A stretch of 25,791 bases of DNA, from positions 5,984 to 31,774 of the forward strand of contig CAYPOZ010000007.1 of assembly GCA_964412415.1 (NCBI GenBank), read 5' to 3'. Each line of letters starts with the position of its first letter. The first letter of the stretch is position 1. This DNA is from an uncultured Isosphaeraceae bacterium. GTDB lineage: Bacteria > Planctomycetota > Phycisphaerae > Phycisphaerales > SM1A02. The notes beneath the pieces are model-generated. The model did no database searches and was not told where the DNA came from. It was given only the letters and a program-made list of their open reading frames with translations. This document shows positions 7,550-23,743 of the stretch, piece after piece. The position numbers were made by a program, and so were the translations under genes.

Positions 7550-8123
7550 CAACTACGACTCGTTCACATGGAACCTTGTGCATGCGATCGGGCTGCAGAG
7601 GCCCGGCGCCGATGTGCGCGTGGTGCGCAATGACGAGCTCGATGCGGGGCAGCTCGCATCACTCGCGCTGTCCGCGCTCGTGATCTCTCCCGGACCGTGC
7701 TCTCCGGAGGAGAGCGGCATCTGCCGGGATGCGATCCGGGCGCTCGCGGGTCGCGTGCCGATCCTCGGGGTGTGCCTTGGCCACCAGGCGATGGCCGATG
7801 CGTTTGGGATGCGCGTCGTCAGGGCGCCCGAGCCCGTTCACGGGAAGACGAGTGCGGTGGAGCACGATGCCCGCGGGCTGTTCGGCGGCCTCCCGTGCCC
7901 GATCACGGTCGCGCGGTACCACTCGCTTGTCGTGGAGCGGTCCTCCGTGGCCGGCCCCTTCGAGGTGAGCGCGTGGACGCCTGAAGGCCTCGTCATGGGA
8001 CTGCGGTGGACCGGCCCTGGCTCCGGCAGCTGCCCCATGGACGGCGTGCAGTTCCATCCGGAGAGCTTCCTGAGCGGGGAAGGCCCGGCGCTTCTGGGCA
8101 ACTTCCTCCGCAACGTCGCGTGA
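7533..8123 (+). CDS. trpG: Class I glutamine amidotransferase (anthranilate/aminodeoxychorismate synthase component II, TrpG/PabA)
   Basis: MILVLDNYDSFTWNL N-terminus, ISPGPCSP, catalytic GVCLGHQ, HGKTS, ARYHSL and QFHPES. True start is 7533, not the 7263 ORF start. TrpG and PabA cannot be distinguished from sequence alone. Confidence 0.9.
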   Translation: MILVLDNYDSFTWNLVHAIGLQRPGADVRVVRNDELDAGQLASLALSALVISPGPCSPEESGICRDAIRALAGRVPILGVCLGHQAMADAFGMRVVRAPEPVHGKTSAVEHDARGLFGGLPCPITVARYHSLVVERSSVAGPFEVSAWTPEGLVMGLRWTGPGSGSCPMDGVQFHPESFLSGEGPALLGNFLRNVA

Positions 8124-8236
8124 GCTGCGGGCGCGGCACCGGTCCGTGAGCCCGCCGGCGCGCGCTCCGCGCAGCACGCTGGCACCATCCGGGAATGCAC
8201 GCCCGCTTGCGCACTCCCGCGATACCCTTCGTCACC

Positions 8237-8650
8237 ATGTCCACCACCGTGAGCGATGTCGCGACAGGCGTGCTCATGACCGCATCCGACGGTCATGTGG
8301 TCCTGCGCGTTCCCGGCACCAACTACATGATCAGGCTCGCGTGCGCCGCTGACGAGCGCGATCTTGCGCCGCACGTTGGCAGGCGGGTGAGCGGCATCGT
8401 GCATGCGAAGGCGCTGAAGATGAACCATGCCGCCGGCGGCGGCGTCTTCATCGAGCCTGTCGATGGGCATCCGCGCATTGTGCAGGGCCGCGTCATCGCG
8501 ACCGACATCGGGCGCAACCGCGTGCTTGCCGACGTCGTGGTGCCAATGTGGCTTGAGGTTGCGCCGGGTCAGGCCGCATCGGACTTCGCGACCGGCCAGC
8601 TCCTGAACTTCTACGTGCAGAGCGGCGCAACCTTCACTCCGGTGGGGTGA
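8237..8650 (+). CDS. Hypothetical beta-rich protein (137 aa)
   Basis: Open frame with GC-rich third positions and a TACCCT box 8 nt before ATG 8237. No family recognised with confidence. Confidence 0.7.
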   Translation: MSTTVSDVATGVLMTASDGHVVLRVPGTNYMIRLACAADERDLAPHVGRRVSGIVHAKALKMNHAAGGGVFIEPVDGHPRIVQGRVIATDIGRNRVLADVVVPMWLEVAPGQAASDFATGQLLNFYVQSGATFTPVG

Positions 8651-8722
8651 TCGCGCGCAGGACCGGGGGCTCCTGCAACCCGCCTTGGGACGACGGGCGC
8701 TGCCCGTTCGCGATGCGCCCGG

Positions 8723-9886
8723 TCAGGGCGCGCTGCTGACTGCGCCAAGGACCTTCTTGCGCAGGCCGGGACCGTCGTAGACCGCGACCTCGCCAGCGCC
8801 CACCTTGTCGATGCCCACGCGCACGAGCTGCTGGCCTTGGCCTCCGCGCAGGCTCATCGCGCCCCCATCGGCATCAGCTGCCGCGCCGACCACAACGACT
8901 GGCGTGCCGGACGCGTTGCCGAGGTTGAGCAGGCCGCCGTTGGCGGTTGCGCCAAGACCGACAAGGCGAAGGCCGCCGGACATGAGCGAGAAGAGCGGCG
9001 CATCTGCGGCACCGGTCTGCATCACCATCAGGGGCTCGTCGGCGGAGCGGCCGAGCGTGATCTGCGCGCCCGCATCGGTGCGCGCCTGCGCTGAGACCGT
9101 CTCGTTGCCGCCCGGCGCATAGAGGGCCATCGATCCGCCCGCATCCGGTGCCATGACACCGAGCGCGGCAGCGCGCGTGCCGGCGCGCGTGGCGCAGGTC
9201 ACGGTGCCGCCGTCATCGCCCGAGGTGAGCTCGACGACCGGAACGCCAGCCGCATCAGCCACGCGCATGACGCCGGCCTTTCCTGAGGCTGCGCCCATCG
9301 CCACCAGCTCGCGTCCTTCGGCGTTGCGCACTGAGACGCCAACGCTGCCTTCCGCAGCTGCTGCCGCGAAGAGGGGACGACCCTCCGCGTCGGCGATCGC
9401 AAAGGCGGGGCCTCTCTCGTTGGTGGCGAGCATTGCGGTCATGGAGCCGTCGGTGGTGTTGGTCTCCACCCGTCCGCCAGCCTCCGTGGCGTACATGCCG
9501 GTGACGAGCTCGCCGCCCGCATTCCACATGGCGAGGTCGCCGCCCTGCGCGTTCGCGCCCATGCGCACCACGTTCGCGCCGGCGGGACCCCAGATGTCGA
9601 CCTGCCCGCCATGCTCGCCGACGGCGGCAAGGAAGACGACACGGTTGCTCGAGTCCACAACCTCAAGGCGCCGCGCACGCACCACGTCGCTGATGCCCGT
9701 GGCCTGCGTGGCCGCGATGCAGGCGAGCGCGACCAGCGGCAGCGCGGCTGCAAGGGCCACCCGCTTCCATCGCCGCTCGCGCGTGTGCGCTGCCGTGATC
9801 TCCCGCTCGAGTGTCCCGAGGCGCGCGGTGATGGCATCGATGCGGTCGTCGCTTGGGGAGCCGGACGCTGCGTGCTGTTCGATCAT
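8723..9886 (-). CDS. Hypothetical membrane-anchored protein with ~22-aa tandem beta repeats
   Basis: N-terminal coiled-coil-like segment, a hydrophobic helix (VALAAALPLVALACIAA), then 14 degenerate repeats. TATCCT box 7 nt before the ATG. Confidence 0.8.
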   Translation of the reverse strand: MIEQHAASGSPSDDRIDAITARLGTLEREITAAHTRERRWKRVALAAALPLVALACIAATQATGISDVVRARRLEVVDSSNRVVFLAAVGEHGGQVDIWGPAGANVVRMGANAQGGDLAMWNAGGELVTGMYATEAGGRVETNTTDGSMTAMLATNERGPAFAIADAEGRPLFAAAAAEGSVGVSVRNAEGRELVAMGAASGKAGVMRVADAAGVPVVELTSGDDGGTVTCATRAGTRAAALGVMAPDAGGSMALYAPGGNETVSAQARTDAGAQITLGRSADEPLMVMQTGAADAPLFSLMSGGLRLVGLGATANGGLLNLGNASGTPVVVVGAAADADGGAMSLRGGQGQQLVRVGIDKVGAGEVAVYDGPGLRKKVLGAVSSAP

Positions 9887-9918
9887 GGCTCGTAGGATAC
9901 GGATTGGAGATCAAACGC

Positions 9919-11109
9919 ATGCCGCGTCCCCGCGCTCGTCATCAAGGTCCCCTCGGCGTGGGGCTCATCGGCACCAAGTTCATGGGTCGCGCCCACTCGG
10001 TGGCGTGGGCTGGGGCGCCGCGGTTCTTCGACCTTCCCGCCCCGGCGCTTGCCTGCGTGGCGGGCAAGGATGCCGCGGAGACCCACGAGTTCGGGAGGCG
10101 ATGGGGGTGGACGCGCTCGACGGCGGACTGGCGTGACCTCGTGGGCGATCCGGCCGTCACCCTCGTGGATGTCGCCGTCCCCAACAACCTCCACGCGGCG
10201 ATGTCGATCGCGGCGCTCGGGGCAGGCAAGCACGTCGCCTGCGAGAAGCCACTTGCGGGCACGCTCGCGGATGCGCGTCGCATGCGCGATGCGGCGCGCG
10301 CCGCCGCGCGCAAGGGAATCCGCACGTTCGTGTGGTTCAACTACCGCCGGGCGCCGGCCGTTGCGCTGATGCACCGCATGGTGAGGCAGGGGAGGATCGG
10401 CCGCATCTACCACGTGCGCGCCACCTACCTGCAGGACTGGGGCGGCCCGTCGACGCCGATGCTGTGGCGGTTCGATGCGTCGGCCGCCGGAAGCGGCGCG
10501 CACGGTGACCTCAACGCGCACATCGTTGACATGGCGCGCTTCGTGACGGGCGAGGAGGTCGTGGAGGTCAACGGCGCGGTGGAGCGCACGTTCGTCGAGC
10601 GGCGTGCGGCCGCTCCTGCGCGTCGCGGGGGGCGTGCGCGCACCCAGCGCAGCACCGTCGACGACTGCGTGGCGTTCCTCGCGCGCATGTCGGGCGGCGC
10701 GGTGGCGACGTTCGAGGCGTCGAGGGTGGCGACTGGCCACAAGAACCGGAACACGCTCGAGATCAACGGCGAGCGCGGGTCGGTGCGATTCGACTTCGAG
10801 CGCATGAACGAGCTCGAATGGTGGGATGACACGCAGGAGCAGGCGCTGCGCGGATGGACGCGCATCATGTGCACCGAGCCGGTGCACCCGTACGTGCGCG
10901 CGTACTGGCCTCCCGCTCACCTCATCGGCTACGAGCACGGCTTCGTGAGCCAGGCAGCGGACATCATGCGCACGCTCTCGGGACTGGAGCCGGAAGTGCC
11001 GCTGCCCGACTTCGACGACGCGTTCGCGACGCAGTGCGTGCTCGAGGCCGCGCTGCGCAGCGCGCGCACGCGCAGGCCGGTGCTGGTGAAGTCAGTGGTG
11101 CGCGTCTAG
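9919..11109 (+). CDS. Gfo/Idh/MocA family NAD(P)-dependent oxidoreductase
   Basis: VGLIGTKFMGRAH Rossmann start, GKHVACEKPLA, FNYRRAPA, YLQDW and GAHGDLNAHIVD. GGAGA Shine-Dalgarno (9906-9910) supports start 9919. Confidence 0.92.
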   Translation: MPRPRARHQGPLGVGLIGTKFMGRAHSVAWAGAPRFFDLPAPALACVAGKDAAETHEFGRRWGWTRSTADWRDLVGDPAVTLVDVAVPNNLHAAMSIAALGAGKHVACEKPLAGTLADARRMRDAARAAARKGIRTFVWFNYRRAPAVALMHRMVRQGRIGRIYHVRATYLQDWGGPSTPMLWRFDASAAGSGAHGDLNAHIVDMARFVTGEEVVEVNGAVERTFVERRAAAPARRGGRARTQRSTVDDCVAFLARMSGGAVATFEASRVATGHKNRNTLEINGERGSVRFDFERMNELEWWDDTQEQALRGWTRIMCTEPVHPYVRAYWPPAHLIGYEHGFVSQAADIMRTLSGLEPEVPLPDFDDAFATQCVLEAALRSARTRRPVLVKSVVRV

Positions 11110-11238
11110 CGGCGCCGGCGGGGCGCGCGGCAACGTGTTGCGCCGTGCGCGGCACGCAGGATGCCGCACCAGCCGCGGTTTTCGCCGTGCGGTCGCGCTA
11201 CACTTCCGGGCTTGCGCACGCTGTGCGCGCATCCACTC

Positions 11239-13368
11239 ATGCCCGTAGAGCACACCAGGAGTCCGCGCAGCCGCATCTCGCCCGATGCGCTCGATCGCCT
11301 CGAGGCCAGCGCGAATGCCGCGGTGGCGGCGCTCTCGTCGCTGCAGCGCGAGGACGGCCACTGGTGCGGGGAGCTCGAGGGCGACTCGATCCTCCAGAGC
11401 GAGTACATGCTCATGAAGTGGATCCTTGGCCAGGAGCGCGCGCTGATGGCCGATGGCCGCAGCGGATGGGACATGATGTGCCGGCTCGCCGCGCAGCTCC
11501 GCTCGCAGCAGCGCGCCGACGGCGGGTGGGGCCAGTACCCCGGCTCGGGCATCGACATCAGCGCCACCGTCAAGGCCTACCTCTGCCTGAAGCTGATGGG
11601 CGACGATCCCTCAGCGCCGCACATGGTGCGTGCACGGGAGCGGGTGCTTGAGCTTGGCGGTGCCGAGGGCTGCAACTCCTTCACCACCTTCTACCTCGCG
11701 TCGCTCGGCCAGGTGCCGTGGGATGCGGTGCCTGCGATCCCTCCAGAGGTCGTGTGGCTGCCGCGCTGGTTCTACTTCCACCTGGACAAGGTGAGCGCGT
11801 GGAGCCGCACGATGATCCTCCCGCTGGCCATCGTGAACGCGCACCGCCCGGTGCGCGAGCTCGCGCCGCACCAGCGCATCGACGAGCTCTACCTGAGCGC
11901 GCGTGCGCGCGGCTCGCTGCGGATGCGCGCGGACACGCCCGCGCCATGGAAGGCGTTCTTCCGGACCGTCGACCGCACGCTGAAGCTGATGCAGCGCTTC
12001 AGGCTGATGCCCTGGCGCGAGCAGGCGATCGCAGATGCGTTCGCGTGGATCATGCGCCGGGCCAGCCAGGAGATGCCTGCGCCGACGGAGGGCCTCGGCG
12101 CGATCTTCCCGCCGATGGTCTACCTGCAGGTGGTCTTCAAGGTGCTCGGCATCCCGCGGGACGACCCGCGCGTGAAGCAGGCCGAGCGAGACCTCGATGC
12201 ATTCATCATTGACGGGCCGACGCATGCCCGCATCCAGCCGTGCTTCTCGCCGGTGTGGGACACCGGCATCGCGCTGTATGCGCTGACCGACTGCGGTCTT
12301 GATGCGCAGGACGCACGGCTTGCGCGCGCGGCGCACTGGCTGTGCGGGCGCGAGTGCACGCACGTTGGCGACTGGATCCGCAACTGCGCGCCGGGCACGC
12401 AGGCCGGCGGCTGGTACTTCGAGTACGCCAACGCGTGGTACCCCGACTGCGACGACACGGCGATGGTGGCGATGGCGCTGCAGCGCTGCGGCGACAGCGA
12501 GAGCGTCGGGGCCGCGAGGCGTGGCATCGCATGGATGCTCGCCATGCAGAACGACGACGGCGGATGGGCCGCCTTCGACCGCACGCGTGACCGGCGCATC
12601 CTCGAGTACGTGCCGTTCGCGGACCACAATGCGATGCAGGACCCGTCGTGCCCCGACATCACCGGACGTGCGCTCGAGTGCCTGAGCTGGCACGGCATGC
12701 GCGTGGGCGACGCGGTGGTCGACCGCGCTGTCGCGTACATCCGCTCGCACCAGGAGCCCGACGGCAGCTTCTTCGGCCGCTGGGGGGTGAACTACATCTA
12801 CGGCACCTGGCAGGCCGTCATCGGCCCGATCCGATGCGGCGTCTCGCGCGACGCGGATTGGATCCGGAGCGCTGGCGCGTGGGTCAAGTCCGTGCAGAAG
12901 GCAGATGGGTCCTTCGGCGAGACCGCGAACTCGTATGTCGACCCGAGGCTGCGCGGAACAGGGCCATCCACGGCATCGCAGACCGCATGGGGCGCGATGA
13001 TCCTCCAGGAGGTCTTCGGCGCCGACGACCCTGACCTGCTCCGAGCGCTCGAGTGGCTTGCGCGCACGCAGCTCGATGCGCGCGCCGCGGCGGACCCTGC
13101 TGCCAACCCCGATGGCGATCCGGCCGGGAGCTGGCGCGAGACCGAGTGCACGGGCACCGGCTTCCCGAAGGTCTTCTACCTGCGCTACCACCTGTACCGC
13201 CTGTACTTCCCGGTGATGGCGCTGGGACGGTTCCTGCGAGGGCACGGGCGGACCTTGGCGGCCGCCCGCCCTGGGGCGTCAGCGGAGTCTCTCAGTTCGC
13301 CGGCGCGCGCGACGGGTGCGGGCCAGGTTGCGGTGGCGCTGGAGCCGGCCGGCGTGTCAGGTCGATAG
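11239..13368 (+). CDS. shc: Squalene-hopene cyclase
   Basis: ELEGDSILQSEY, QW repeats (QRADGGW, QNDDGGW, QEPDGSF, QKADGSF), catalytic DCDDTA (12445-12462), WGVNYIYGT and TGTGFPKVFYLRYHLY. TACACT box at 11199-11204 argues against start 11161. Confidence 0.96.
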   Translation: MPVEHTRSPRSRISPDALDRLEASANAAVAALSSLQREDGHWCGELEGDSILQSEYMLMKWILGQERALMADGRSGWDMMCRLAAQLRSQQRADGGWGQYPGSGIDISATVKAYLCLKLMGDDPSAPHMVRARERVLELGGAEGCNSFTTFYLASLGQVPWDAVPAIPPEVVWLPRWFYFHLDKVSAWSRTMILPLAIVNAHRPVRELAPHQRIDELYLSARARGSLRMRADTPAPWKAFFRTVDRTLKLMQRFRLMPWREQAIADAFAWIMRRASQEMPAPTEGLGAIFPPMVYLQVVFKVLGIPRDDPRVKQAERDLDAFIIDGPTHARIQPCFSPVWDTGIALYALTDCGLDAQDARLARAAHWLCGRECTHVGDWIRNCAPGTQAGGWYFEYANAWYPDCDDTAMVAMALQRCGDSESVGAARRGIAWMLAMQNDDGGWAAFDRTRDRRILEYVPFADHNAMQDPSCPDITGRALECLSWHGMRVGDAVVDRAVAYIRSHQEPDGSFFGRWGVNYIYGTWQAVIGPIRCGVSRDADWIRSAGAWVKSVQKADGSFGETANSYVDPRLRGTGPSTASQTAWGAMILQEVFGADDPDLLRALEWLARTQLDARAAADPAANPDGDPAGSWRETECTGTGFPKVFYLRYHLYRLYFPVMALGRFLRGHGRTLAAARPGASAESLSSPARATGAGQVAVALEPAGVSGR

Positions 13369-13375
13369 ACCCATC

Positions 13376-14704
13376 GTGAGCCTCGGTTCGAGAATCGCGC
13401 TGACCATAGCGGGCGCTGTCGCTGCGCTTGCTGTGGCGATCGTGGCGATTCGCGGTGGGCTTGGCCGGGCGGCAGGCGAGCCGATCCGCGTCGGCGTGCT
13501 CCATTCGCTCACCGGACCGATGGCCACGAGCGAGGTTCCTGTGGTCAACGCCATCAGGATGGCGGCGGATGAGGTCAACGCCCGGGGCGGGGTGCTTGGG
13601 CGACCGATCGAGCTGTTCGTGCGCGACGGGAAGAGCGATCCGGCGACGTTCGCCGAGGAGGCCGAGCGGCTGCTCACGGAGGACCGCGTCAGCGTGATCT
13701 TCGGGTGCTGGACCAGCGCGTCGCGTCGCACGGTGCGCCCGGTGATCGAGCGCCTGAAGGGACTGATGGTCTATCCCGTGCAGTACGAGGGCGTGGAGTC
13801 GAGCCCGAACCTGGTCTACGCGGGCGCCGCGCCAAACCAGCAGATCGTGCCCGCGGTGCAGTGGCTCTTCAGCCGGGGTGCGCGGAGGTTTGCGCTCGTC
13901 GGCAGCGACTACGTCTTTCCGCACATCGCCAACGCCATCATCCGAGACCTGGTGCGTTCGCTCGGCGGGGAGGTGGTCGCCGAGCGCTACATCCCGCTCG
14001 CCGGAGGCGGCGAGGACGACGCGGCACGGGCGATTGCCGCAGCCACGCCTGACGTGATCCTGAACACCGTCAACGGGGACGCCAACCGTCCGCTGATGCG
14101 CGCGCTCCGCACAAGCGGCATCGAGCCGGGCAGGACGCCGGTGATGTCCTTCAGCATCGCAGAGCCGCAGATCGCCGCATGGTCGCCAGATGCGTTCGTC
14201 GGCGACTACGTGGCGGCGACGTACTTCGAGTCGATGCCTTCCCCCGAGAGCCGTTCGTTCGCGCGTGCGCTTCGCGCGCACCACGGCGACTCGGCCCGTG
14301 CCAGCGATGCCATCGAGTCCGCGTACACGGCGTTCATGCTGTGGGTTCAGGGCGTCGATGATGCGGGCACGACCGATCCCACTGCCGTGCGCTCGGCGAT
14401 GAGCGGCAAGTTCACGGTGGGGCCGGCGGGAATCGCGATTGTCGACCCGACAACGGGTCACCTGTGGCGGAGCGCACGCATCGGCGAGGTGATGCCGGAT
14501 GGGTCGATCCGTGTCGCATGGGAGTCAGGTTCTCCGATCCGTCCCATGCCGTACCCGCTGTGGCGCAGCCGCCGCGACTGGGACCGGTTCCTCGCGGACA
14601 TGCGGAATGCATGGCGGGGTGCGTGGTCGGGTCCCGGCGATGTCGATGCGCCGCGTCCCCACTGGGAGCCGGTGCAGCCCAAGTCGTCAGGAGATGCGCC
14701 ATGA
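13376..14704 (+). CDS. UrtA/AmiC/FmdD-like (urea/short amide) periplasmic binding protein
   Basis: [50 protein letters not shown] and NTVNGD, all hallmark UrtA-family segments. N-terminal hydrophobic helix without a lipobox Cys. GTG start 7 nt after the shc stop. Confidence 0.9.
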
Positions 14705-16680
14705 GCCGTGCGGCGGTTGCGCCTCGACGGGGCCTGGGCCGAACCCTCTCTCTCGCACTGTCTGTGATGGCGATCGGGCCGCTCGTGTTCCTCGCGGCCT
14801 TCCTGTGGGTCACCACAGGCCGCGCCATCGAGCGATCGGCGGCAGAGACCCTCACCGCGCTTGCAGACGAGAAGGCCGCACGCCTCGAGACGTACGTGGA
14901 GGACCGCCTCCGGTCGGTCGTCAGCGTCGCAAACGACACGGCCTTCGTGTCGGCGGCGCGAGGTTCGGTGGGCGACGCCGGCACCGCGCGCATCCGGCTC
15001 TTCGCCGAGGCCATGGGATTCACCGAGCTGGTGATCGCAGATGCGCGGGGCGTGATCACGTTCGCGCTCGATGACGCGAGCTGGGTGGGGAAGTCGACAG
15101 AGGATTCGGACCTCAAGGCGATCGGCGTGTCGGCGGTCGCATTGCGCGTGCGCGCGACCATGCAGGCCGACCTCACGCCGCCACTCGTGGCGGCCTCGGG
15201 CACGTCCCTTTCGATCTACGCCGTCGGTCCGCTCATCGATGGCGGCACGCTGGCGGGAATCTGCGCGGCACGGCTGCCGACGGCGGAGCTTGAGGAGGTG
15301 GTCTCTGACTACACGGGGTTGGGGTCCACAGGCGACGTGATCGGTGCCGCAGACGTCGGCGGCAGCGTCATCGTCACGACGCCAGGCCGCGGCAGCGGTG
15401 GCGCGGGGTCGATGGGACGTGCGATTGGGGAGTCGTTGCCCGAGATGGCGCGGCTGCGTGCAGCGTCTGCGGGCAAGGCATCGAGCGGCTACTGCACTGA
15501 CACGGACGGGCACCCTGTGATCGGCGCATGGACGTACGTGCCCAGCCTTCGGTGGGGTCTCGGCGTGACGATGCGCATCGACGAGGCATTCGCGCTGGCG
15601 GTGCAGCAGCGCAACGTCATCCTGGCGGTGATCGCGGTGTTCGCGGTCGCGTCCGTCGTGATTGCGCGCCTGATTGCCCGGTCGATCAGCGAGCCGATCG
15701 AGCATGCGGCCCGGATCGGCAGCGCGCTTGCGGACGGCAACCTCGCGTGCGAGGTCGTCCCGGCTGGCTCGGGCGAGCCGCGTGCGCTTCTTGACTCGAT
15801 GCACCGGGCGGTGGGGGGTCTCCGTGCGCTTGTCGGCGGAATCCGGGCATCTGTCGTGGAATCCCATGGCGCCGCTACGCGCATCAGGGCAATCGCGCAG
15901 GACCAGCAGGGGACGGTCACCGGATTCGACGCCAGTGCCACGCAGATTGCGGCCGCGGTACACGAGATTGCGGCTACAGGCCGGCAGCTCGCGGCGACTG
16001 TCGCATCGGTGGCGCAGACCGCCTGCGAGGCGGCGCAGGCCGCAGGGCAGGGCCAGGGTTCGCTCGATGAGCTCGGGCAGTCGATGCGTGAGTTGCGCGA
16101 CGCATCGACTGGTGTCGCGTCCAGGCTCGAGGCGATCCGCACCAAGACCGAGTCGATCACCGGCATCGTGACCACCATCACCCGCGTGGCCGAGCAGACA
16201 AACCTCCTGAGCATCAATGCGTCGATCGAGGCTGAGCGCGCAGGTGCGCACGGCGTCGGGTTCCGCGTCGTGGCGCGCGAGGTCGCGCGGCTCGCGTCGC
16301 AGACGGCGGCGGCCACGGTCGACATCGAGCGCCTGGTGTCAGGCATGCAGTCGGCGGTGCAGGAAGGCGTTCGGGAGATGTCCCGCTTTGCGGAAGCGGT
16401 CCAGCGCGGCACCGACACGTCGGCGCACGCCGGGGAGCGCCTTGGCGAGGTGATCGGGCAGGTCGGCGGCCTGCAGTCGCGATTCGGCGAGGTGGCCGAG
16501 GGCGTGAAGGCGCAGGACTCTGGAGCGCGCCAGATCAGCGAGGCAATGTCGCTGCTCGCCAGGGGCGCCCGCAGTGCCGCCGAGGCGATGCGGAAGTTCA
16601 CGGAGGCGAGCGCTTCGCTCGAGTCGCAGGCGCGAGAGCTTGAGCGCAGTGTGGCTTCGTTCAAGCTGCCCGCGGAGTGA
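14701..16680 (+). CDS. Methyl-accepting chemoreceptor (TM-dCache-TM-HAMP-MCP signal), WspA-like
   Basis: Two TM helices flank a Cache-like domain, followed by a HAMP-like segment and the hairpin tip [41 protein letters not shown] overlap with the upstream binding protein supports start 14701. Confidence 0.93.
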
Positions 16681-16700
16681 GCGGCACCGGCCAGCTGCAC

Positions 16701-17384
16701 TCAGAATGGCGATGGCGATTCGAAGGCGCTGCGCTCGCCAGTCCCGGGGTGGGTAAACGTCAGCGTCGTGGCATGCAGGCACAGCCTGGTCGCGGCAGCG
16801 CACTCGCCTGGGGTTCCGTAGAGGTCGTCGCCCAGGATGGCGTGCCCGATCGCACGCAGGTGCAGACGCAGCTGGTGCGATCGGCCTGTCAGCGGCGAGA
16901 GCGAGAGGCGCGCGCAGGAGAGTGCGGTGCCCGCTTCGGCGGGACGCACTGGCGGCGGCACCGCACCCAGGCGCTCGATCACGCCCCATGAGGTCTGGCT
17001 TGGCCGTCCCATCGCGGCATCGATGACCTGCAGTGGCGGGTTCTCGAGATCCTTGCGGATCGGGAGGTCGATCGATCCGCCATCGGCCGATGGATGCCCC
17101 GCCACGAGCGCCTCGTAGCGCTTGCTGACGGCACGCCGCTCGAACTGCATCGACAGGTCACGGTGGGTGGAGGCATCGAGAGCGAGCACGATCACGCCGC
17201 TCGTGTCGCGGTCGAGCCGGTGCACGATGCGGGCCGTGGGCCACCGCATGGATGCCCGTGCGACCAGGCAGTCGGCCTTCTCGGGACCGATGCCGGGCAC
17301 GCTCAGCAGTCCGCTCGACTTGTCGAGCACGACAAGCCACTGGTCGGCATGGATGGTCGAGTAGCCGCTCGTGACGGCGTCCAT
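16701..17384 (-). CDS. rluA: RluA-family pseudouridine synthase
   Basis: DKSSGLLSVPG, catalytic VHRLDRDTSG, LTGRSHQLRLHL, GHAILGDDLYG and RLCLHA. No S4 domain. TAGCCT box 7 nt before ATG 17384. Confidence 0.92.
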   Translation of the reverse strand: MDAVTSGYSTIHADQWLVVLDKSSGLLSVPGIGPEKADCLVARASMRWPTARIVHRLDRDTSGVIVLALDASTHRDLSMQFERRAVSKRYEALVAGHPSADGGSIDLPIRKDLENPPLQVIDAAMGRPSQTSWGVIERLGAVPPPVRPAEAGTALSCARLSLSPLTGRSHQLRLHLRAIGHAILGDDLYGTPGECAAATRLCLHATTLTFTHPGTGERSAFESPSPF

Positions 17385-17439
17385 GGCGCGGAGGCTAGGG
17401 GAGGGCGGGAACGCGACGAGCGACCTAGACTCACGATCC

Positions 17440-18685
17440 ATGGCGTGCGCAGAGTTCCGACATGCCGTTTCCCCACGCGGGCATGCCTCGCTGGCGCTGG
17501 CGATTGCTGCGCTGGCCCTCGGATGCGAGAGCGTGCCTCCCGGGCCAGTGCCTGCAGGTGGGCGGGCTCCGGCTTCCCCGGCGAGGGAGGGCATTGCGGC
17601 CAGTCCCGAGGCTGCGGAGGCGCCCATCCTGGGCGGTGCGGTGCAGCTCACGTTCCCCGGGCAGTTCCGCAAGGCGGGGGAGAGCTACTTCAGTCCCGAC
17701 GGCGCACGAGTCATCTTTCAGGCTGTGCCGGCCGGCGATGGTGCGTCCGGCGACGACGCCGGCTACTCGATGTTCATCGCAGATGTGGTCCGCAAGGGCG
17801 ATGCGCCGGTGCGCCTCGAGCGCGTGCGCCAGATCTCGCCGCCAATGGCCCACAACACGTGCGGATGGTTCCACCCGACGGATCCGAACGTCGTCATCTT
17901 CGGCACCACGGTCATCGCTCCCGCGGGAGATGACGTTCCCGGGTACCAGCGTGGCACGAGCCGCTACCGGTGGGCGTTCCCTCCCGAGATGCGCGTCGTG
18001 CAGGTGCGCATCGATCCGGCGACCGGCGAGCCCGGTCCGCCCGAGGTGATTGCAGGCGATGGCACTGCCTATGCGGCGGAGGGCAGCATCAGCCCCGACG
18101 GCCGTGCGCTGCTCTTCACGAAGGTCGATCGGGTGACGCAAGGCGACCTGTGGGTGAAGGACCTTGCCAGCGGCGAGGAGCTGGCGCTCGTGGTCGAGCC
18201 CGGATACGACGGCGGGCCCTTCTTCTCGCCGGATGGGCGGTCGATCATCTACCGCAGCGACCGCAGCAACGACAACCTGCTCCAGCTCTTCACCGCCGAT
18301 GTCGTGCGCGACAACGGCGGCCGCATCACGGGGGTCTCAGCGGAACGCGCGCTCACGTCGAACGGCCACGTCAACTGGTGCCCCTTCTACCAACTACGAG
18401 GTGTTCCTGGTCGATGTGCGAAACCCGTCGCGGCGAGTGCGTGTGACGCACGTGCCGGGAGCCGATGTGCTTCCGGCGTTCTCGCCGAGCGGACGCCACA
18501 TGATCTGGACAAGCAAGCGCGACGGGAGCGGCACATCGCAGCTCTGGAGCGCGGCATTTGACGCGGACGCCGCACGGGCTGCGCTCGACGCGTCCGCGGA
18601 CCGGGCCGCGCCGCCTGCCGCATCGACTTCGTCGTCAGCTGCCGCGGATCGGGCGGCATCCCCGGCCGGCAGTGCTGCGAGGTGA
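17440..18685 (+). pseudogene. TolB-like/PD40 beta-propeller lipoprotein with frameshift near 18391 (pseudogene or assembly error)
   Basis: Lipobox LALGC. PD40 repeats (ESYFSPDG, GSISPDG, GPFFSPDG) run in one frame up to NWCPFY (18390). The family-like sequence resumes in the +1 frame as NYEVFLV...VLPAFSPSGRHMIWTSKR (from 18392) and ends at TGA 18685. Confidence 0.8.
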
Positions 18686-22624: not shown

Positions 22625-23743
22625 TCAGGACATCAGGGCCTCGTACAGCTCGACGATTCCCTTGCCCTCGGTGGCGACGGTCTCGAAGATCGGGCGCCCG
22701 CCGGCGATGTCAAGGAGCTCGCGCACGTGCTTGGACTCGCCGGCGTGGTCCGCCTTGTTGGCGACGAAGAGGTCGGCGATCTCGAGGATGCCTGCCTTGT
22801 CCATCTGGACGGCGTCACCCATGCCAGGCACGGTGACGACGGCCGTGCGGTCGACGTGGTGGCGGATCGCCACGTCGTTCTGGCCGGCGCCCACAGTCTC
22901 GATGATCAGCGTCTCGAATCCTGCGGCGCCCACAAGCTCCGCGATCGTGGGGAGCGCGACGTAGTCCTCGCCGACGATCGCGAGCGAACGGTAGAAGACC
23001 TTGTCGTCGACGGCGTTGAAGTCCACGCGCAGCCGGTCGCCAAGCAGCGCGCCGCCGGTGATCGGGCTCATCGGGTCGAATGCGATGACCGCGATGCGCG
23101 TGCCACGCCGGACAGCCTCGCCGCAGAGCGCGGCAACGAGCGTGCTCTTGCCGGCGCCCGGCGCACCGGTGAGGCCAATCACCCGTGCCGGCCGCTTTCG
23201 CGTTGCGCCGGCGGGTAGCGCGCCAGCCTGCGCGAGGGAGATCTGGCGCGCGAGGATCGCCTCTGCCGGCCCGGTGGTGCGCGGCATGTACGGCTTCACG
23301 GAGCTTCGCACGCTCTCGATGATGTCCTCCATCCCGGTGCCGGTGTGGTAGACGCGCGCGACACCCGCATCGAGCAGCGTCTTCACGTCCTCCTGCGGGA
23401 TGATGCCGCCCACGTTCACCGGCACGTCCGGCCTGCCCACCGACTTGCACTCGTCGAGCAGCTTCGGCACCAGCACAAGGTGCGAGTTGCTCATCATCGA
23501 GCACGCGATGCAGTCGACATCCTCGTCGCGTGCTCCGATCGCGAGGCTGCGGGGGGTCTGCCAGAGCCCGGAGTAGATGACGTGGACTCCGCTATCGCGC
23601 AGCACGCGGGCGATCAGCTTCACGCCACGGTCATGGCCATCGAGCCCGATCTTGCCGAGCAGTACGCGGGGCCGGTGAGGCAGGTCCGCGCAGCGGTCCC
23701 GCTTCTCGATCGACGTGGTGGGGTCGTTGAGGGTGCGAGTCAT
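22625..23743 (-). CDS. Fusion of a cobalamin-binding domain (mutase small-subunit type) and a MeaB/ArgK-type GTPase
   Basis: N-terminal RPRVLLGKIGLDGHDRG (DxHxxG) and VGGIIPQED. C-terminal GLTGAPGAGKST, FDPMSPITGGALLGDRLR, IETVGAGQ, GDAVQMDKAGILEIAD and NKAD. Confidence 0.92.
   Translation of the reverse strand: MTRTLNDPTTSIEKRDRCADLPHRPRVLLGKIGLDGHDRGVKLIARVLRDSGVHVIYSGLWQTPRSLAIGARDEDVDCIACSMMSNSHLVLVPKLLDECKSVGRPDVPVNVGGIIPQEDVKTLLDAGVARVYHTGTGMEDIIESVRSSVKPYMPRTTGPAEAILARQISLAQAGALPAGATRKRPARVIGLTGAPGAGKSTLVAALCGEAVRRGTRIAVIAFDPMSPITGGALLGDRLRVDFNAVDDKVFYRSLAIVGEDYVALPTIAELVGAAGFETLIIETVGAGQNDVAIRHHVDRTAVVTVPGMGDAVQMDKAGILEIADLFVANKADHAGESKHVRELLDIAGGRPIFETVATEGKGIVELYEALMS

Follow-up and report, generated by a model that had tools for sequence, protein, structure and literature searches.

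A UrtA-like binding protein gene coupled to a chemoreceptor gene as a candidate two-part urea sensor in a planctomycete

On a genome fragment of an uncultured planctomycete, a gene for a UrtA-like binding protein (BP) is followed directly by a gene for a transmembrane methyl-accepting protein (MCP). On balance, the pair probably encodes a two-part periplasmic urea sensor, in which BP docks on the dCache domain of the MCP and the receptor signals. BP would be a UrtA-type Venus-flytrap protein that an N-terminal anchor and a short tether keep at the inner membrane. An ATGA overlap of the two genes couples its synthesis to that of the MCP, and its pocket, identical with the one in transport UrtAs, is predicted to bind urea or a very close analogue. 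By analogy with LuxP-LuxQ, HptA-HptS and BasB-BasT, the liganded, closed BP would dock on the dCache domain and shift the signalling state of the receptor, which would then pass the signal to a CheA/CheW pathway whose genes would lie elsewhere in the genome. The parts that we infer are urea as the ligand, the docking of BP on the Cache domain, a role for the C-terminal tail of BP, and an output in motility or another chemosensory function.

Background

Urea is a major nitrogen currency of soils, lakes and oceans. The sensing of external urea by bacteria is, to our knowledge, largely unexplained; direct urea binding by TlpB of H. pylori is one case. Full-text literature searches returned no paper that describes a UrtA-like/Cache sensor module. 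In a Dechloromonas genome, according to the paper on it, UrtA is immediately preceded by a kinase and a receiver protein, and is separated from UrtBCDE by a sensor and an ABC-transporter component; the paper makes no comment on this order.

Gene organization of the locus

The window, that is, the whole stretch of 25,791 nucleotides that was analysed, contains the two genes consecutively on the plus strand. The features discussed below are these:

11161 to 13368, plus strand: squalene-hopene cyclase gene (open reading frame; Pfam SQHop_cyclase in the syntenic relatives L001 and L002)
13376 to 14704, plus strand: BP gene, 442 aa, start GTG 13376, stop TGA 14702-14704 (open reading frame list)
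13382 to 13456, plus strand: N-terminal hydrophobic helix of BP, aa 3-27, followed by a linker of about 10 aa (AF2 helix; 19-aa uncharged stretch, aa 7-25)
13484 to 14560, plus strand: Peripla_BP_5 two-lobe domain with a complete urea pocket (Pfam; pocket mapped through a HMMER alignment to 8hic)
14543 to 14635, plus strand: Trp-rich C-terminal tail of BP, aa 390-420 (Trp-rich motif aa 390-417, nt 14543-14626; helix 399-412; AF2 pLDDT 89-94)
14690 to 14704, plus strand: GGAG (14690-14693) and ATGA (14701-14704), the latter joining BP stop and MCP start (sequence)
14701 to 16680, plus strand: MCP gene, 659 aa (open reading frame; MCPsignal E=1e-29)
14743 to 14811, plus strand: MCP TM1, aa 15-37 (23-aa hydrophobic stretch; part of a long N-terminal helix in the model)
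14812 to 15606, plus strand: MCP periplasmic ligand-binding domain (LBD), dCache-like, aa 38-302 (weak Pfam match; AF2; Foldseek; LBD homology)
15616 to 15678, plus strand: MCP TM2, aa 306-326 (21-aa hydrophobic stretch)
15676 to 15840, plus strand: MCP HAMP-like linker, aa 326-380 (below the Pfam threshold; HAMP at the equivalent place in partner sensors)
16021 to 16551, plus strand: MCP signalling domain, aa 441-617 (Pfam PF00015)

Public gene calls start BP at the GTG at 13376 and not at an ATG, and a 442-residue database protein (P0001) is identical to the window BP. A longer reading frame, from a GTG at 13316, is possible and is without support. The gap between the end of the squalene-hopene cyclase gene and the start of BP is 7 nt, and the two are possibly on one transcript. 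A scan of 9000-17800, uninformative for a planctomycete of 70% GC, returned no promoter-like or terminator-like sites. No RNA runs are listed with the region, which is contained only in DNA metagenomes (aquatic, lagoon and freshwater).

The GGAG sits 8 nt upstream of the MCP ATG, and the 4-nt overlap of the two genes is common to L001 and L002. Among 62 loci scored for stop/start overlap, 58 of which are BP-sensor pairs, 27 offer a start codon that overlaps the BP stop by 4 nt and 10 more offer one that overlaps it by 8 nt, so that the overlap in the window is no local accident. Judged from this arrangement of stop and start, BP and MCP are shown to be translationally coupled through the ATGA overlap.

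The remaining genes of the window, identified by Pfam on its open reading frames and by synteny with L001 and L002, are MurF-like, MraY, MutS, ZIP, GATase, GFO/IDH/MocA, RluA-like, PD40, NadB-like, PrpD and MeaB-B12 genes, together with the squalene-hopene cyclase gene. Neither of these two sources shows a urt, ure, amidase or che gene among them; tblastn gave no match to UrtB-E in the window, nor are these present in the syntenic relatives. The first-pass annotation had described an orphan binding protein that overlaps an MCP at 14701-14704, in a window free of ABC permease or ATPase, urease, amidase and che genes. The overlap is present in the sequence, Pfam, synteny and tblastn found none of those genes, and 'orphan' holds within the window.

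Pairing of the binding protein with membrane sensors

The pairing was surveyed at 80 loci, drawn from GTDB species-level genomes with the BP most similar to that of the window, which were retrieved by the peptide patterns GCWTSASR[KR] and GSDYVFP[RH]xA and ranked by similarity to the window BP. In this sample, which is enriched for the window BP subfamily and includes few transport UrtAs, a Cache/HAMP membrane sensor lies directly downstream of BP at at least 56 of the 80 loci, while urtB is next to BP, with urtBCDE following, at only seven. At 51 loci the N-terminal part of the downstream gene is detectably homologous to the periplasmic domain of the window MCP; beyond these are two loci with an MCP of different or undetected LBD and three with a Pfam-confirmed dCache kinase. 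The partner MCP of a single locus (L014) has a CHASE3 domain instead of Cache. A fusion of BP with a kinase, of either the Ser/Thr or the histidine type, occurs at 11 loci: the architecture is Pkinase-TM-BP in seven and BP-TM-HAMP-HisKA-HATPase in four cyanobacteria. Pairing of BP with a sensor recurs across eight phyla or more, and nitrifiers and an archaeal MAG are among the carriers of the family.

The outputs of the partners vary over a homologous LBD, from histidine kinase and MCP to EAL/GGDEF and SpoIIE (PP2C). Pfam on 55 downstream proteins gave HAMP in 45, dCache_1 in 40, HATPase_c in 26, MCPsignal in 16, REC in 16, EAL in three, SpoIIE in three and GGDEF in one. In Azoarcus olearius BH72 (AM406670.1, about 143.4-164.7 kb) the genes are BP, dCache-HK, REC and REC-PAS-GGDEF. 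A conserved partner LBD under a variable output domain is the pattern expected if BP acts through the LBD. The earlier reading of the pair as a dedicated sensing unit had been staked on conserved adjacency or fusion of its homologues with MCPs or histidine kinases, as against their residence mostly in urtBCDE operons; the genomes surveyed bear out the former, and these comparisons of gene order and sequence argue for the sensing role.

In a neighbour-joining tree, sensor-linked BPs form a clade apart from transport UrtAs; the seven urtB-adjacent BPs are placed in a different clade and lack the C-terminal tail. Three genomes have both kinds of protein side by side: in L020, L025 and L054 the order is BP, a hybrid dCache kinase, a divergent OmpR regulator, and a second, tail-less UrtA with urtB and urtC, so that a separate transport UrtA (urtABC) adjoins the BP-kinase pair. 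Most sensor loci are not beside urease or urt genes.

At six loci, several of them from Planctomycetota (L018, L022, L038, L045, L055 and L078), BP and MCP are followed by cheW and cheR. A second cheW and cheA come next in the first five, while the L078 contig ends before that point; the CheA of L038 has Hpt, HATPase, CheW and REC domains by Pfam. Tautonia sociabilis GM2012 is a cultured carrier of a BP-MCP-che cluster. The succession MCP-cheW-cheR-cheW-cheA is the gene order of wspA-E. In contrast to Wsp-type clusters, no CheB or WspR-like output gene lies within these five loci, and che genes do not adjoin the window MCP. We know of no substrate-binding protein (SBP) used by WspA.

Probable membrane anchor and Trp-rich tail of the binding protein

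The hydrophobic stretch near the N-terminus of BP (aa 7-25) contains no Cys, and hence no lipobox, and has no adjacent AXA site, whereas AXA signal-peptide sites end the N-terminal stretch of Gram-negative transport UrtAs in the same data set. The helix thus probably stays uncleaved and anchors BP in the membrane, with a short tether behind it. At the other end of the protein, a hidden Markov model of the Trp-rich tail, trained on half of the sequences, matches 66 of 69 sensor-adjacent or Ser/Thr kinase-fused BPs and none of the 14 transport or histidine kinase-fused UrtAs. That the tail might be peculiar to the window BP was considered and rejected, the tail being family-wide by both the subfamily alignment (A1) and the tail model. 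At the level of sequence comparison, the tail and the short membrane tether, as opposed to a cleavable signal peptide, are shown to be signatures of the sensor-linked BP subfamily. The first-pass annotation had singled out both ends of the protein: the lipobox-free helix is confirmed by the uncharged, Cys-free stretch and the AF2 helix, and the Trp-rich tail proves to be the mark of a subfamily. Ser/Thr kinase-fused BPs, which have no Cache partner, still keep the tail, so it is not necessarily a docking element.

These features bear on the reading of BP as an ordinary transport UrtA, with permease and ATPase genes elsewhere, whose adjacency to the MCP is incidental or which serves transport and taxis alike. 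MBP, RBP and DppA of E. coli do serve both, the SBPs that act on bacterial chemoreceptors are mostly transporter-linked (PMC8050422), the fold and pocket of BP match those of transport UrtAs, and the source databases label its homologues 'urea ABC transporter substrate-binding protein'. Our survey of gene content covered the window, and an urtBCDE operon that also uses BP could lie elsewhere in the genome. Against this, BP scores 402.5 bits with the NCBIfam UrtA model (TIGR03407), below the curated cutoff of 492.75; the few BPs with urtB next to them among the nearest loci are tail-less and of another clade; three genomes encode a transport UrtA separately, next to the sensor pair; and Gram-negative transport SBPs do not usually exchange the cleavable signal peptide for a membrane tether. 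We regard a transport role of this kind as distinctly unlikely.

The urea pocket and the predicted ligand

BP has the type-I periplasmic binding protein fold by Pfam, AF2 and Foldseek. Peripla_BP_5 matches residues 37-395 (E=1e-128), and the AF2 model (pLDDT 91) superposes on the urea-bound UrtA and urea-binding protein structures 8tg1, 7s6e and 8hic with an rmsd of 1.3-1.4 A. The family motifs CWTSASR, YPVQYEG and DYVFP, reported as intact on first reading, lie at aa 111-117, 133-139 and 178-182. The urea-pocket residues of P. marinus UrtA, W120, S122, Y141, Q144, E146, Y190, N246 and S274 (PMC10392092), correspond to W112, S114, Y133, Q136, E138, Y179, N233 and S260 of BP, and with F181 all nine pocket residues of BP are present. 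Across the subfamily alignment eight of the nine are invariant and F181 is nearly so, and AmiC-type substitutions are absent. By its residues the pocket is UrtA-type and not AmiC-type, which favours urea over larger amides; the ligand class first suggested, urea or short amides, is thereby narrowed towards urea. Urea or a very close analogue is the predicted ligand of BP.

A co-sensor for a different small molecule, such as formamide, acetamide, hydroxyurea, methylurea or a guanidine-like compound, is unlikely in view of the nine retained urea-site residues, the missing AmiC-type substitutions and the three sensor pairs that abut urtABC. Such a ligand would be in keeping with a family that includes AmiC, a binder of acetamide and butyramide, and with the position of most sensor loci away from urease and urt genes; the ligand of the tail-bearing members is, moreover, a prediction from sequence. 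A cytoplasmic regulator of the AmiC kind was rejected on the export helix, the UrtA-type motifs and the lack of an AmiR partner; no ANTAR (AmiR-type) gene occurs in the window.

The chemoreceptor and its periplasmic domain

The cytoplasmic part of the MCP is readily recognized: PF00015 (MCPsignal) scores 103.6 bits against a cutoff of 34.6, and the canonical MCP hairpin tip motif is at aa 498-515. HAMP has no Pfam match in the window MCP and is present at the equivalent place in 45 of the 55 partner sensors. The periplasmic domain, called a Cache domain at the outset, is dCache-like by its model and its homologues, whereas the Pfam match in the window MCP itself is weak (dCache_1 at aa 41-289, E=2e-3, 18 bits against a cutoff of 45). 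In the homologous partner sensors dCache_1 is clear (40 of 55, down to 1e-17). The AF2 model of the LBD (pLDDT 70.6) has a long helix and two alpha/beta modules, which is dCache topology, and its best Foldseek matches are the dCache LBDs of PctA, Tlp3, Mlp24 and DctB, the first three at TM 0.5-0.7. At 268 aa, as against about 283, and with dCache_1 below the Pfam threshold, the window LBD is a divergent member of the partner family.

The dCache domain of the MCP might instead bind a small ligand of its own, with BP as an accessory modulator (inhibitory when apo, for example, or a second input). In most of the dCache domains that have been characterised, ligands bind directly, in the distal module (PMC8050422); cytosine is listed in the dCache domain of 5ERE, a solved fusion; and LBD-only paralogues of 354 aa, without an adjacent BP, exist. 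Such paralogues made up most of the 19 matches in a search with the MCP periplasmic region; that search, being word-indexed, missed even close orthologues and is thus no fair measure of how often the LBD is paired. The consensus of the partner LBD family holds no known ligand motif, and the tight one-to-one coupling of the genes, together with fusions in which BP replaces the Cache domain altogether, argues that BP carries the signal. We consider direct ligand binding of this sort improbable and prefer docking of liganded BP on the LBD.

Comparison with known systems

PMC8050422 lists SBP-activated sensors that have dCache-like domains, as well as the gene neighbours basB-basT and cosB-cosT. 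In BasB-BasT and CosB-CosT of Halobacterium salinarum, as in the window, the SBP gene immediately precedes that of the chemoreceptor and no transporter genes are attached (PMC8050422). BasB is a type-I (Peripla_BP_6) SBP whose transducer has a dCache-like LBD (PMC8050422), whereas the window BP is of the Peripla_BP_5/UrtA kind. Further, the Halobacterium pairs are archaeal, their ligands are branched-chain amino acids or compatible solutes, no Trp-rich tail is described for them, and the window module type, unlike them, is found with kinases, c-di-GMP enzymes and phosphatases as well. The pairs LuxP-LuxQ, HptA-HptS and TorT-TorS resemble that of the window in that an SBP dedicated to sensing and not to transport has its gene next to that of a membrane sensor; the periplasmic domains of LuxQ and HptS are dCache-like, and solved complexes of SBP and LBD exist (PMC8050422). 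LuxP, HptA and TorT differ in belonging to other SBP families, in their ligands (AI-2, glucose-6-phosphate and TMAO), in being soluble and in having kinase output only. Two traits of BasB-BasT and LuxP-LuxQ are found here: the SBP gene of the window lies next to a transmembrane sensor gene in the same orientation, unaccompanied by transporter genes, and in pairs of the window type the pairing follows the periplasmic domain of the sensor and not its output.

Close structural relatives are UrtA of the cyanobacterial urtABCDE system (8HIC, 7S6E, 7S6F) and the Caldicellulosiruptor urea-binding protein (8TG1), which share with BP their fold, 40-47% identity and an identical pocket, at the rmsd given above. 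They are tail-less transport proteins with either a cleavable signal peptide or a lipid anchor, whereas BP has the tail, belongs to another clade and is not encoded in a urt operon. The AmiC sequence differs from UrtA at the signature motifs. AmiC-AmiR of Pseudomonas aeruginosa (1PEA, 1QO0) is a precedent for a Peripla_BP_5 protein as a sensor of small amides and not a transporter; AmiC, at 34% identity, is cytoplasmic and sequesters the ANTAR antiterminator AmiR, whereas BP is exported or anchored and pairs with a Cache receptor that spans the membrane.

Dret_0059 of Desulfohalobium retbaense (5ERE) combines a type-I SBP and a dCache domain in one periplasmic polypeptide, and differs from the window pair in being a fusion and in its ligands. 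It is among the Foldseek matches of the MCP LBD model, its residues 322-562 being listed as dCache. The N-terminal part of Dret_0059 is said, in work by Wu et al. in Protein Sci in 2017, to be an SBP domain bound to a keto acid. By analogy, this protein would show that type-I SBP and dCache folds can pack together.

Conclusions

Beyond the single locus, the window pair may belong to a large, undescribed family of sensory UrtA-like BPs, marked by tail and tether and spread over at least eight phyla. Through it, urea sensing would reach most major classes of signal transduction in prokaryotes, namely chemoreceptors with Wsp-like clusters, histidine kinases beside urt operons, Ser/Thr kinases, c-di-GMP enzymes and PP2C phosphatases. 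We hold the case for this wider claim to be evenly balanced. Were it true, one recognisable BP subfamily would account for the response of taxis, gene regulation and c-di-GMP control to urea across many lineages, among them Planctomycetota, Acidobacteriota, Verrucomicrobiota, Cyanobacteria, Nitrospira, Nitrosomonas and Azoarcus. It would also correct a systematic annotation error, by which sensory BPs are now counted as transporters in metagenomic surveys of the nitrogen cycle, and would supply the first Peripla_BP_5 member, and a bacterial gene-coupled pair of SBP and chemoreceptor, among the SBP-dependent sensors of PMC8050422. The module, which has cultured hosts in Azoarcus olearius BH72, Tautonia sociabilis and Anabaena cylindrica, would offer a clean system for the question of how a Venus-flytrap protein talks to a dCache domain.

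Results and discussion

Conserved pairing of a UrtA-like protein with membrane sensors

The UrtA-like binding protein (BP, 442 aa) and the methyl-accepting protein behind it (MCP, 659 aa) occupy one strand of the window, in the following order.

Upstream of the cyclase, + strand: GFO/IDH/MocA oxidoreductase
11161-13368, + strand: squalene-hopene cyclase
13376-14704, + strand: BP gene, GTG start, TGA stop at 14702-14704
14701-16680, + strand: MCP gene, ATG start at 14701-14703
Next after the MCP gene, opposite strand: pseudouridine synthase

The first-pass annotation had read this pair as a dedicated urea/short-amide sensing unit, with the BP docking on the receptor rather than serving transport, and its sequence observations are borne out. 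The BP stop codon shares bases with the MCP start codon (ATGA), a GGAG lies eight bases 5' of that ATG, and the quoted BP motifs are each in place; the two genes are translationally coupled. As also claimed, no urt, ure, amidase or che gene is present among the other genes of the window, whose GC content is 70%. An identical 442-aa BP is held in the public collection (P0001), and source databases name proteins of this type 'urea ABC transporter substrate-binding protein'.

Among genomes, the window is closest to Phycisphaerales MAGs (L003 and L004, whose BPs are 86-87% identical to it), recovered from metagenomes of aquatic, lagoon and freshwater origin. Full synteny among close relatives (80-90% identity) is by itself weak evidence, and identity falls to only about 50% in the relatives that come next. 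We inspected the gene following the BP in 80 loci, the best matches to the window BP with one genome per GTDB species.

Gene or domain partner of the BP in 80 loci
Downstream gene whose N-terminal region shares homology with the window MCP periplasmic domain (21-38% identity): 51/80 (20 MCPs, 31 other outputs)
Downstream MCP whose periplasmic domain differs or escaped detection (one CHASE3): 2/80
dCache histidine kinase after the BP, recognized through Pfam only: 3/80
Ser/Thr kinase-TM-BP fusion: 7/80
BP-TM-HAMP-histidine kinase fusion (cyanobacteria): 4/80
urtB immediately after the BP: 7/80
Contig end after the BP: 3/80
Other: 3/80 (L019, a HAMP histidine kinase without a Cache match; L016 and L024, unassigned)

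The annotation had named residence in urtBCDE operons, without conserved MCP adjacency, as an outcome that would speak against its proposal. In these loci, which were picked by two peptide patterns, ordered by how closely their BP resembles that of the window and under-sample transport UrtAs, urtB comes next in only seven and a sensor with the homologous ligand-binding domain in 51; within this BP subfamily, residence mostly in urtBCDE operons was not observed. Pfam domains in 55 downstream proteins were HAMP (45), dCache_1 (40), HATPase_c (26), MCPsignal and receiver (16 each), EAL and SpoIIE (3 each) and GGDEF (1). Judged by sequence, this combination of a constant periplasmic input and swappable outputs beside one BP subfamily is characteristic of a BP and sensor that form one functional unit. 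According to record titles, the hosts comprise Planctomycetota, Acidobacteriota, Verrucomicrobiota and Lentisphaerae, Cyanobacteria, Nitrospirota, alpha-, beta-, gamma- and zeta-Proteobacteria, a 'Deltaproteobacteria' MAG and a Thaumarchaeota MAG.

Of 62 loci scored, 58 being BP-sensor pairs, 27 offer a start codon that overlaps the BP stop by 4 nt, and 10 more offer one with an 8-nt overlap; by our rough estimate, chance would give about 14%. ORF starts are uncertain where GC is high. Many of the 80 loci are MAGs.

Several partners depart from the common layout. A verrucomicrobial tail-bearing BP precedes an MCP with a CHASE3 periplasmic domain (L014, 8001-10975; a che-like cluster lies further downstream), and the BP may not be confined to Cache partners. 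In a Mariprofundus MAG (L033, 2571-6346), a 595-aa BP ORF does not stop at the tail but continues through part of a Cache-like region (aa 438-588, matching Pfam dCache_1), and a complete Cache sensor comes next, with a 1-nt overlap. Either BP and Cache are truly fused here or the assembly contains a frameshift. Proteins of 354 aa consisting of TM, Cache-like domain and TM, with no output domain and 33% identity to the N-terminal part of the window MCP (L083/L084, 7001-8065; P0121-P0138), are widespread in a different lineage of Planctomycetota (251 index blocks). Their immediate neighbours are an ECF sigma factor/Ser/Thr kinase pair and flagellin, FliW and CsrA genes, and no BP lies beside them.

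Two further features of the window were observed. The BP start lies seven bases past the cyclase stop (gap 13369-13375), the oxidoreductase upstream is co-oriented with short gaps, and the sensor pair may share a transcript with the hopanoid gene, a cyclase-BP layout kept in L001 and L002. On the minus strand, one ORF at 22625-23743, adjoining a PrpD/MmgE gene, joins a B12-binding domain to a MeaB-type GTPase, that is, the small domain of methylmalonyl-CoA mutase fused to its chaperone.

An intact urea pocket

The BP matches Peripla_BP_5 (Pfam, E=1e-128) and scores 402 bits against the NCBIfam UrtA model, under the 492.75-bit cutoff. Its nearest solved structures are the Caldicellulosiruptor urea-binding protein 8TG1 (47% identity) and the cyanobacterial UrtAs 7S6E, 7S6F and 8HIC, with AmiC more remote; the AlphaFold2 model (pLDDT 91) superposes on urea-bound structures at 1.3-1.4 A. 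In Prochlorococcus UrtA, urea is surrounded by W120, S122, Y141, Q144, E146, Y190, F192, N246 and S274 (PMC10392092). All nine are present in the BP, as W112, S114, Y133, Q136, E138, Y179, F181, N233 and S260, and eight of them do not vary across 42 aligned relatives. The pocket is thus intact, and the expected ligand is urea or a molecule of nearly equal size and shape.

A subfamily dedicated to signalling

A neighbour-joining tree separates transport UrtAs from a large clade holding all Ser/Thr kinase-fused BPs and all sensor-adjacent BPs but two (L061 and L073, which branch next to the transport group), a split drawn from a sample poor in transport UrtAs that a broader tree would be needed to secure. 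The clade carries a Trp-rich C-terminal tail (aa 390-420 of the window BP; consensus P[FY]PxxR[ST]xxEWxxFLxxLYxxWGGxWANP), modelled with confidence by AlphaFold2 as a helix packed against the protein body. A profile trained on half of the sequences recognizes the tail in 66 of 69 sensor-adjacent or Ser/Thr kinase-fused BPs (35/38 among the untrained ones) and in none of 14 transport or histidine kinase-fused UrtAs. The subfamily is dedicated to signalling partners and the tail is its hallmark; because Ser/Thr kinase fusions without a Cache partner retain it, the tail may stabilise a signalling-competent conformation or dimer instead of forming a docking surface.

The N-termini also differ. Transport UrtAs have N-termini that finish with an AXA signal-peptidase site in Gram-negatives and are lipoproteins with long linkers in Firmicutes, whereas sensor-linked BPs begin with a hydrophobic segment of 17-25 residues (or, in about 10 cases, a lipobox). 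Since only 5-10 residues then lead to the domain, these proteins are predicted to be tethered near the membrane, where the Cache domain of the sensor sits; RAAG-E in the window BP could in principle be a cleavage site.

Fusions were seen in two forms. Seven Pkinase-TM-Peripla_BP_5 proteins of about 750-830 aa, from Pirellulales, Planctomycetaceae and Phycisphaerales MAGs (L013, L021, L027, L029, L032, L044 and L056; BP match at about 8001-9170 in most), have a tail-bearing UrtA-like domain as their C-terminal extracytoplasmic part and resemble receptor kinases of the eukaryotic kind, equipped with a Venus-flytrap domain of the urea type. Four proteins from Microcoleus, Richelia and Oscillatoriales (L049, L050, L065 and L072; 853-975 aa) consist of a UrtA-like domain lacking the tail, joined to TM-HAMP-HisKA-HATPase and, in L050, also to a receiver. 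As the latter group with transport UrtAs, outside the sensor clade, they suggest that UrtA was recruited into signalling a second time, independently.

The receptor and a proposed mechanism

The MCP is organized as follows.

aa 15-37 and aa 306-326: hydrophobic segments flanking a domain of about 265 aa
After the second hydrophobic segment: HAMP-like stretch, under the Pfam threshold
C-terminal to the HAMP-like stretch: canonical signalling domain (Pfam)

The Pfam dCache_1 model matches the MCP weakly. The predicted periplasmic domain (aa 38-302; pLDDT 70.6, moderate confidence) comprises a long helix and two alpha/beta modules, as in double Cache domains, with best PDB matches to PctA, Tlp3, Mlp24 and DctB. 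No che gene accompanies the MCP in the window; its output may be flagellar motility or another chemosensory function.

In the mechanism that we propose, the anchored BP would close on urea and dock on the dCache domain of the receptor, as in LuxP-LuxQ or HptA-HptS (PMC8050422), and docking would alter the signal that passes by way of TM2 and the HAMP-like linker to the kinase-control tip. A gene pair of this kind is also formed by archaeal BasB-BasT and CosB-CosT, the only gene-adjacent binding protein-chemoreceptor pairs in a review of such signalling, which notes that binding proteins for bacterial chemoreceptors have their genes together with those of transporters and lists neither a Peripla_BP_5 protein nor a urea system (PMC8050422). 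In a table of a Dechloromonas genome paper, UrtA comes directly after a kinase and a receiver protein and is separated from UrtBCDE by a sensor and an ABC-transporter component; the paper offers no interpretation. No description of a UrtA-like BP/Cache sensor module was found in full-text searches of the openly accessible literature. Given the review's list and this search, we place the BP-MCP module as a variant within a known kind, sensing mediated by binding proteins.

Ligand and output in other genomes

In Terasakiella (L020), an acidobacterial MAG (L025) and Magnetovibrio (L054), a tail-bearing BP is followed by a hybrid dCache histidine kinase and a divergent OmpR-type regulator, beyond which lie a second, tail-less UrtA, urtB and urtC. 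Separate UrtA paralogues, one for sensing and one for transport, are thus side by side, which supports urea as the signal and counts against dual use.

Pirellulales, Planctomicrobium, Tautonia and further Planctomycetota carry cheW-cheR-cheW-cheA behind BP-MCP wherever the contig reaches far enough, an order typical of Wsp-like clusters. These compact che clusters headed by BP-MCP (L018, L022, L038, L045, L055 and L078; for example L038, 8001-16252, whose CheA has Hpt, HATPase, CheW and receiver domains) showed no CheB or output regulator within the loci.

In Azoarcus olearius BH72 (L086, AM406670.1, 10001-15384) and Azoarcus sp. DD4 (L087), one operon encodes the BP, a HAMP-bearing dCache kinase (4-nt overlap), a single-domain receiver and a receiver-PAS-GGDEF protein, which suggests urea-controlled c-di-GMP. 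The module also occurs in Nitrosomonas, Nitrosomonadales and Nitrospira loci (L047, L070, L012 and L082), and in the Thaumarchaeota MAG (L034, 6717-10164) a tail-bearing BP precedes a histidine kinase with dCache and PAS domains. The contig, 104 kb long, is attributed to an ammonia-oxidising archaeon, an assignment that could be a binning error. A. olearius BH72 provides a cultured, genetically tractable carrier of the module and, if the archaeal binning is right, the module would span domains and be present in a urea-using nitrifier.
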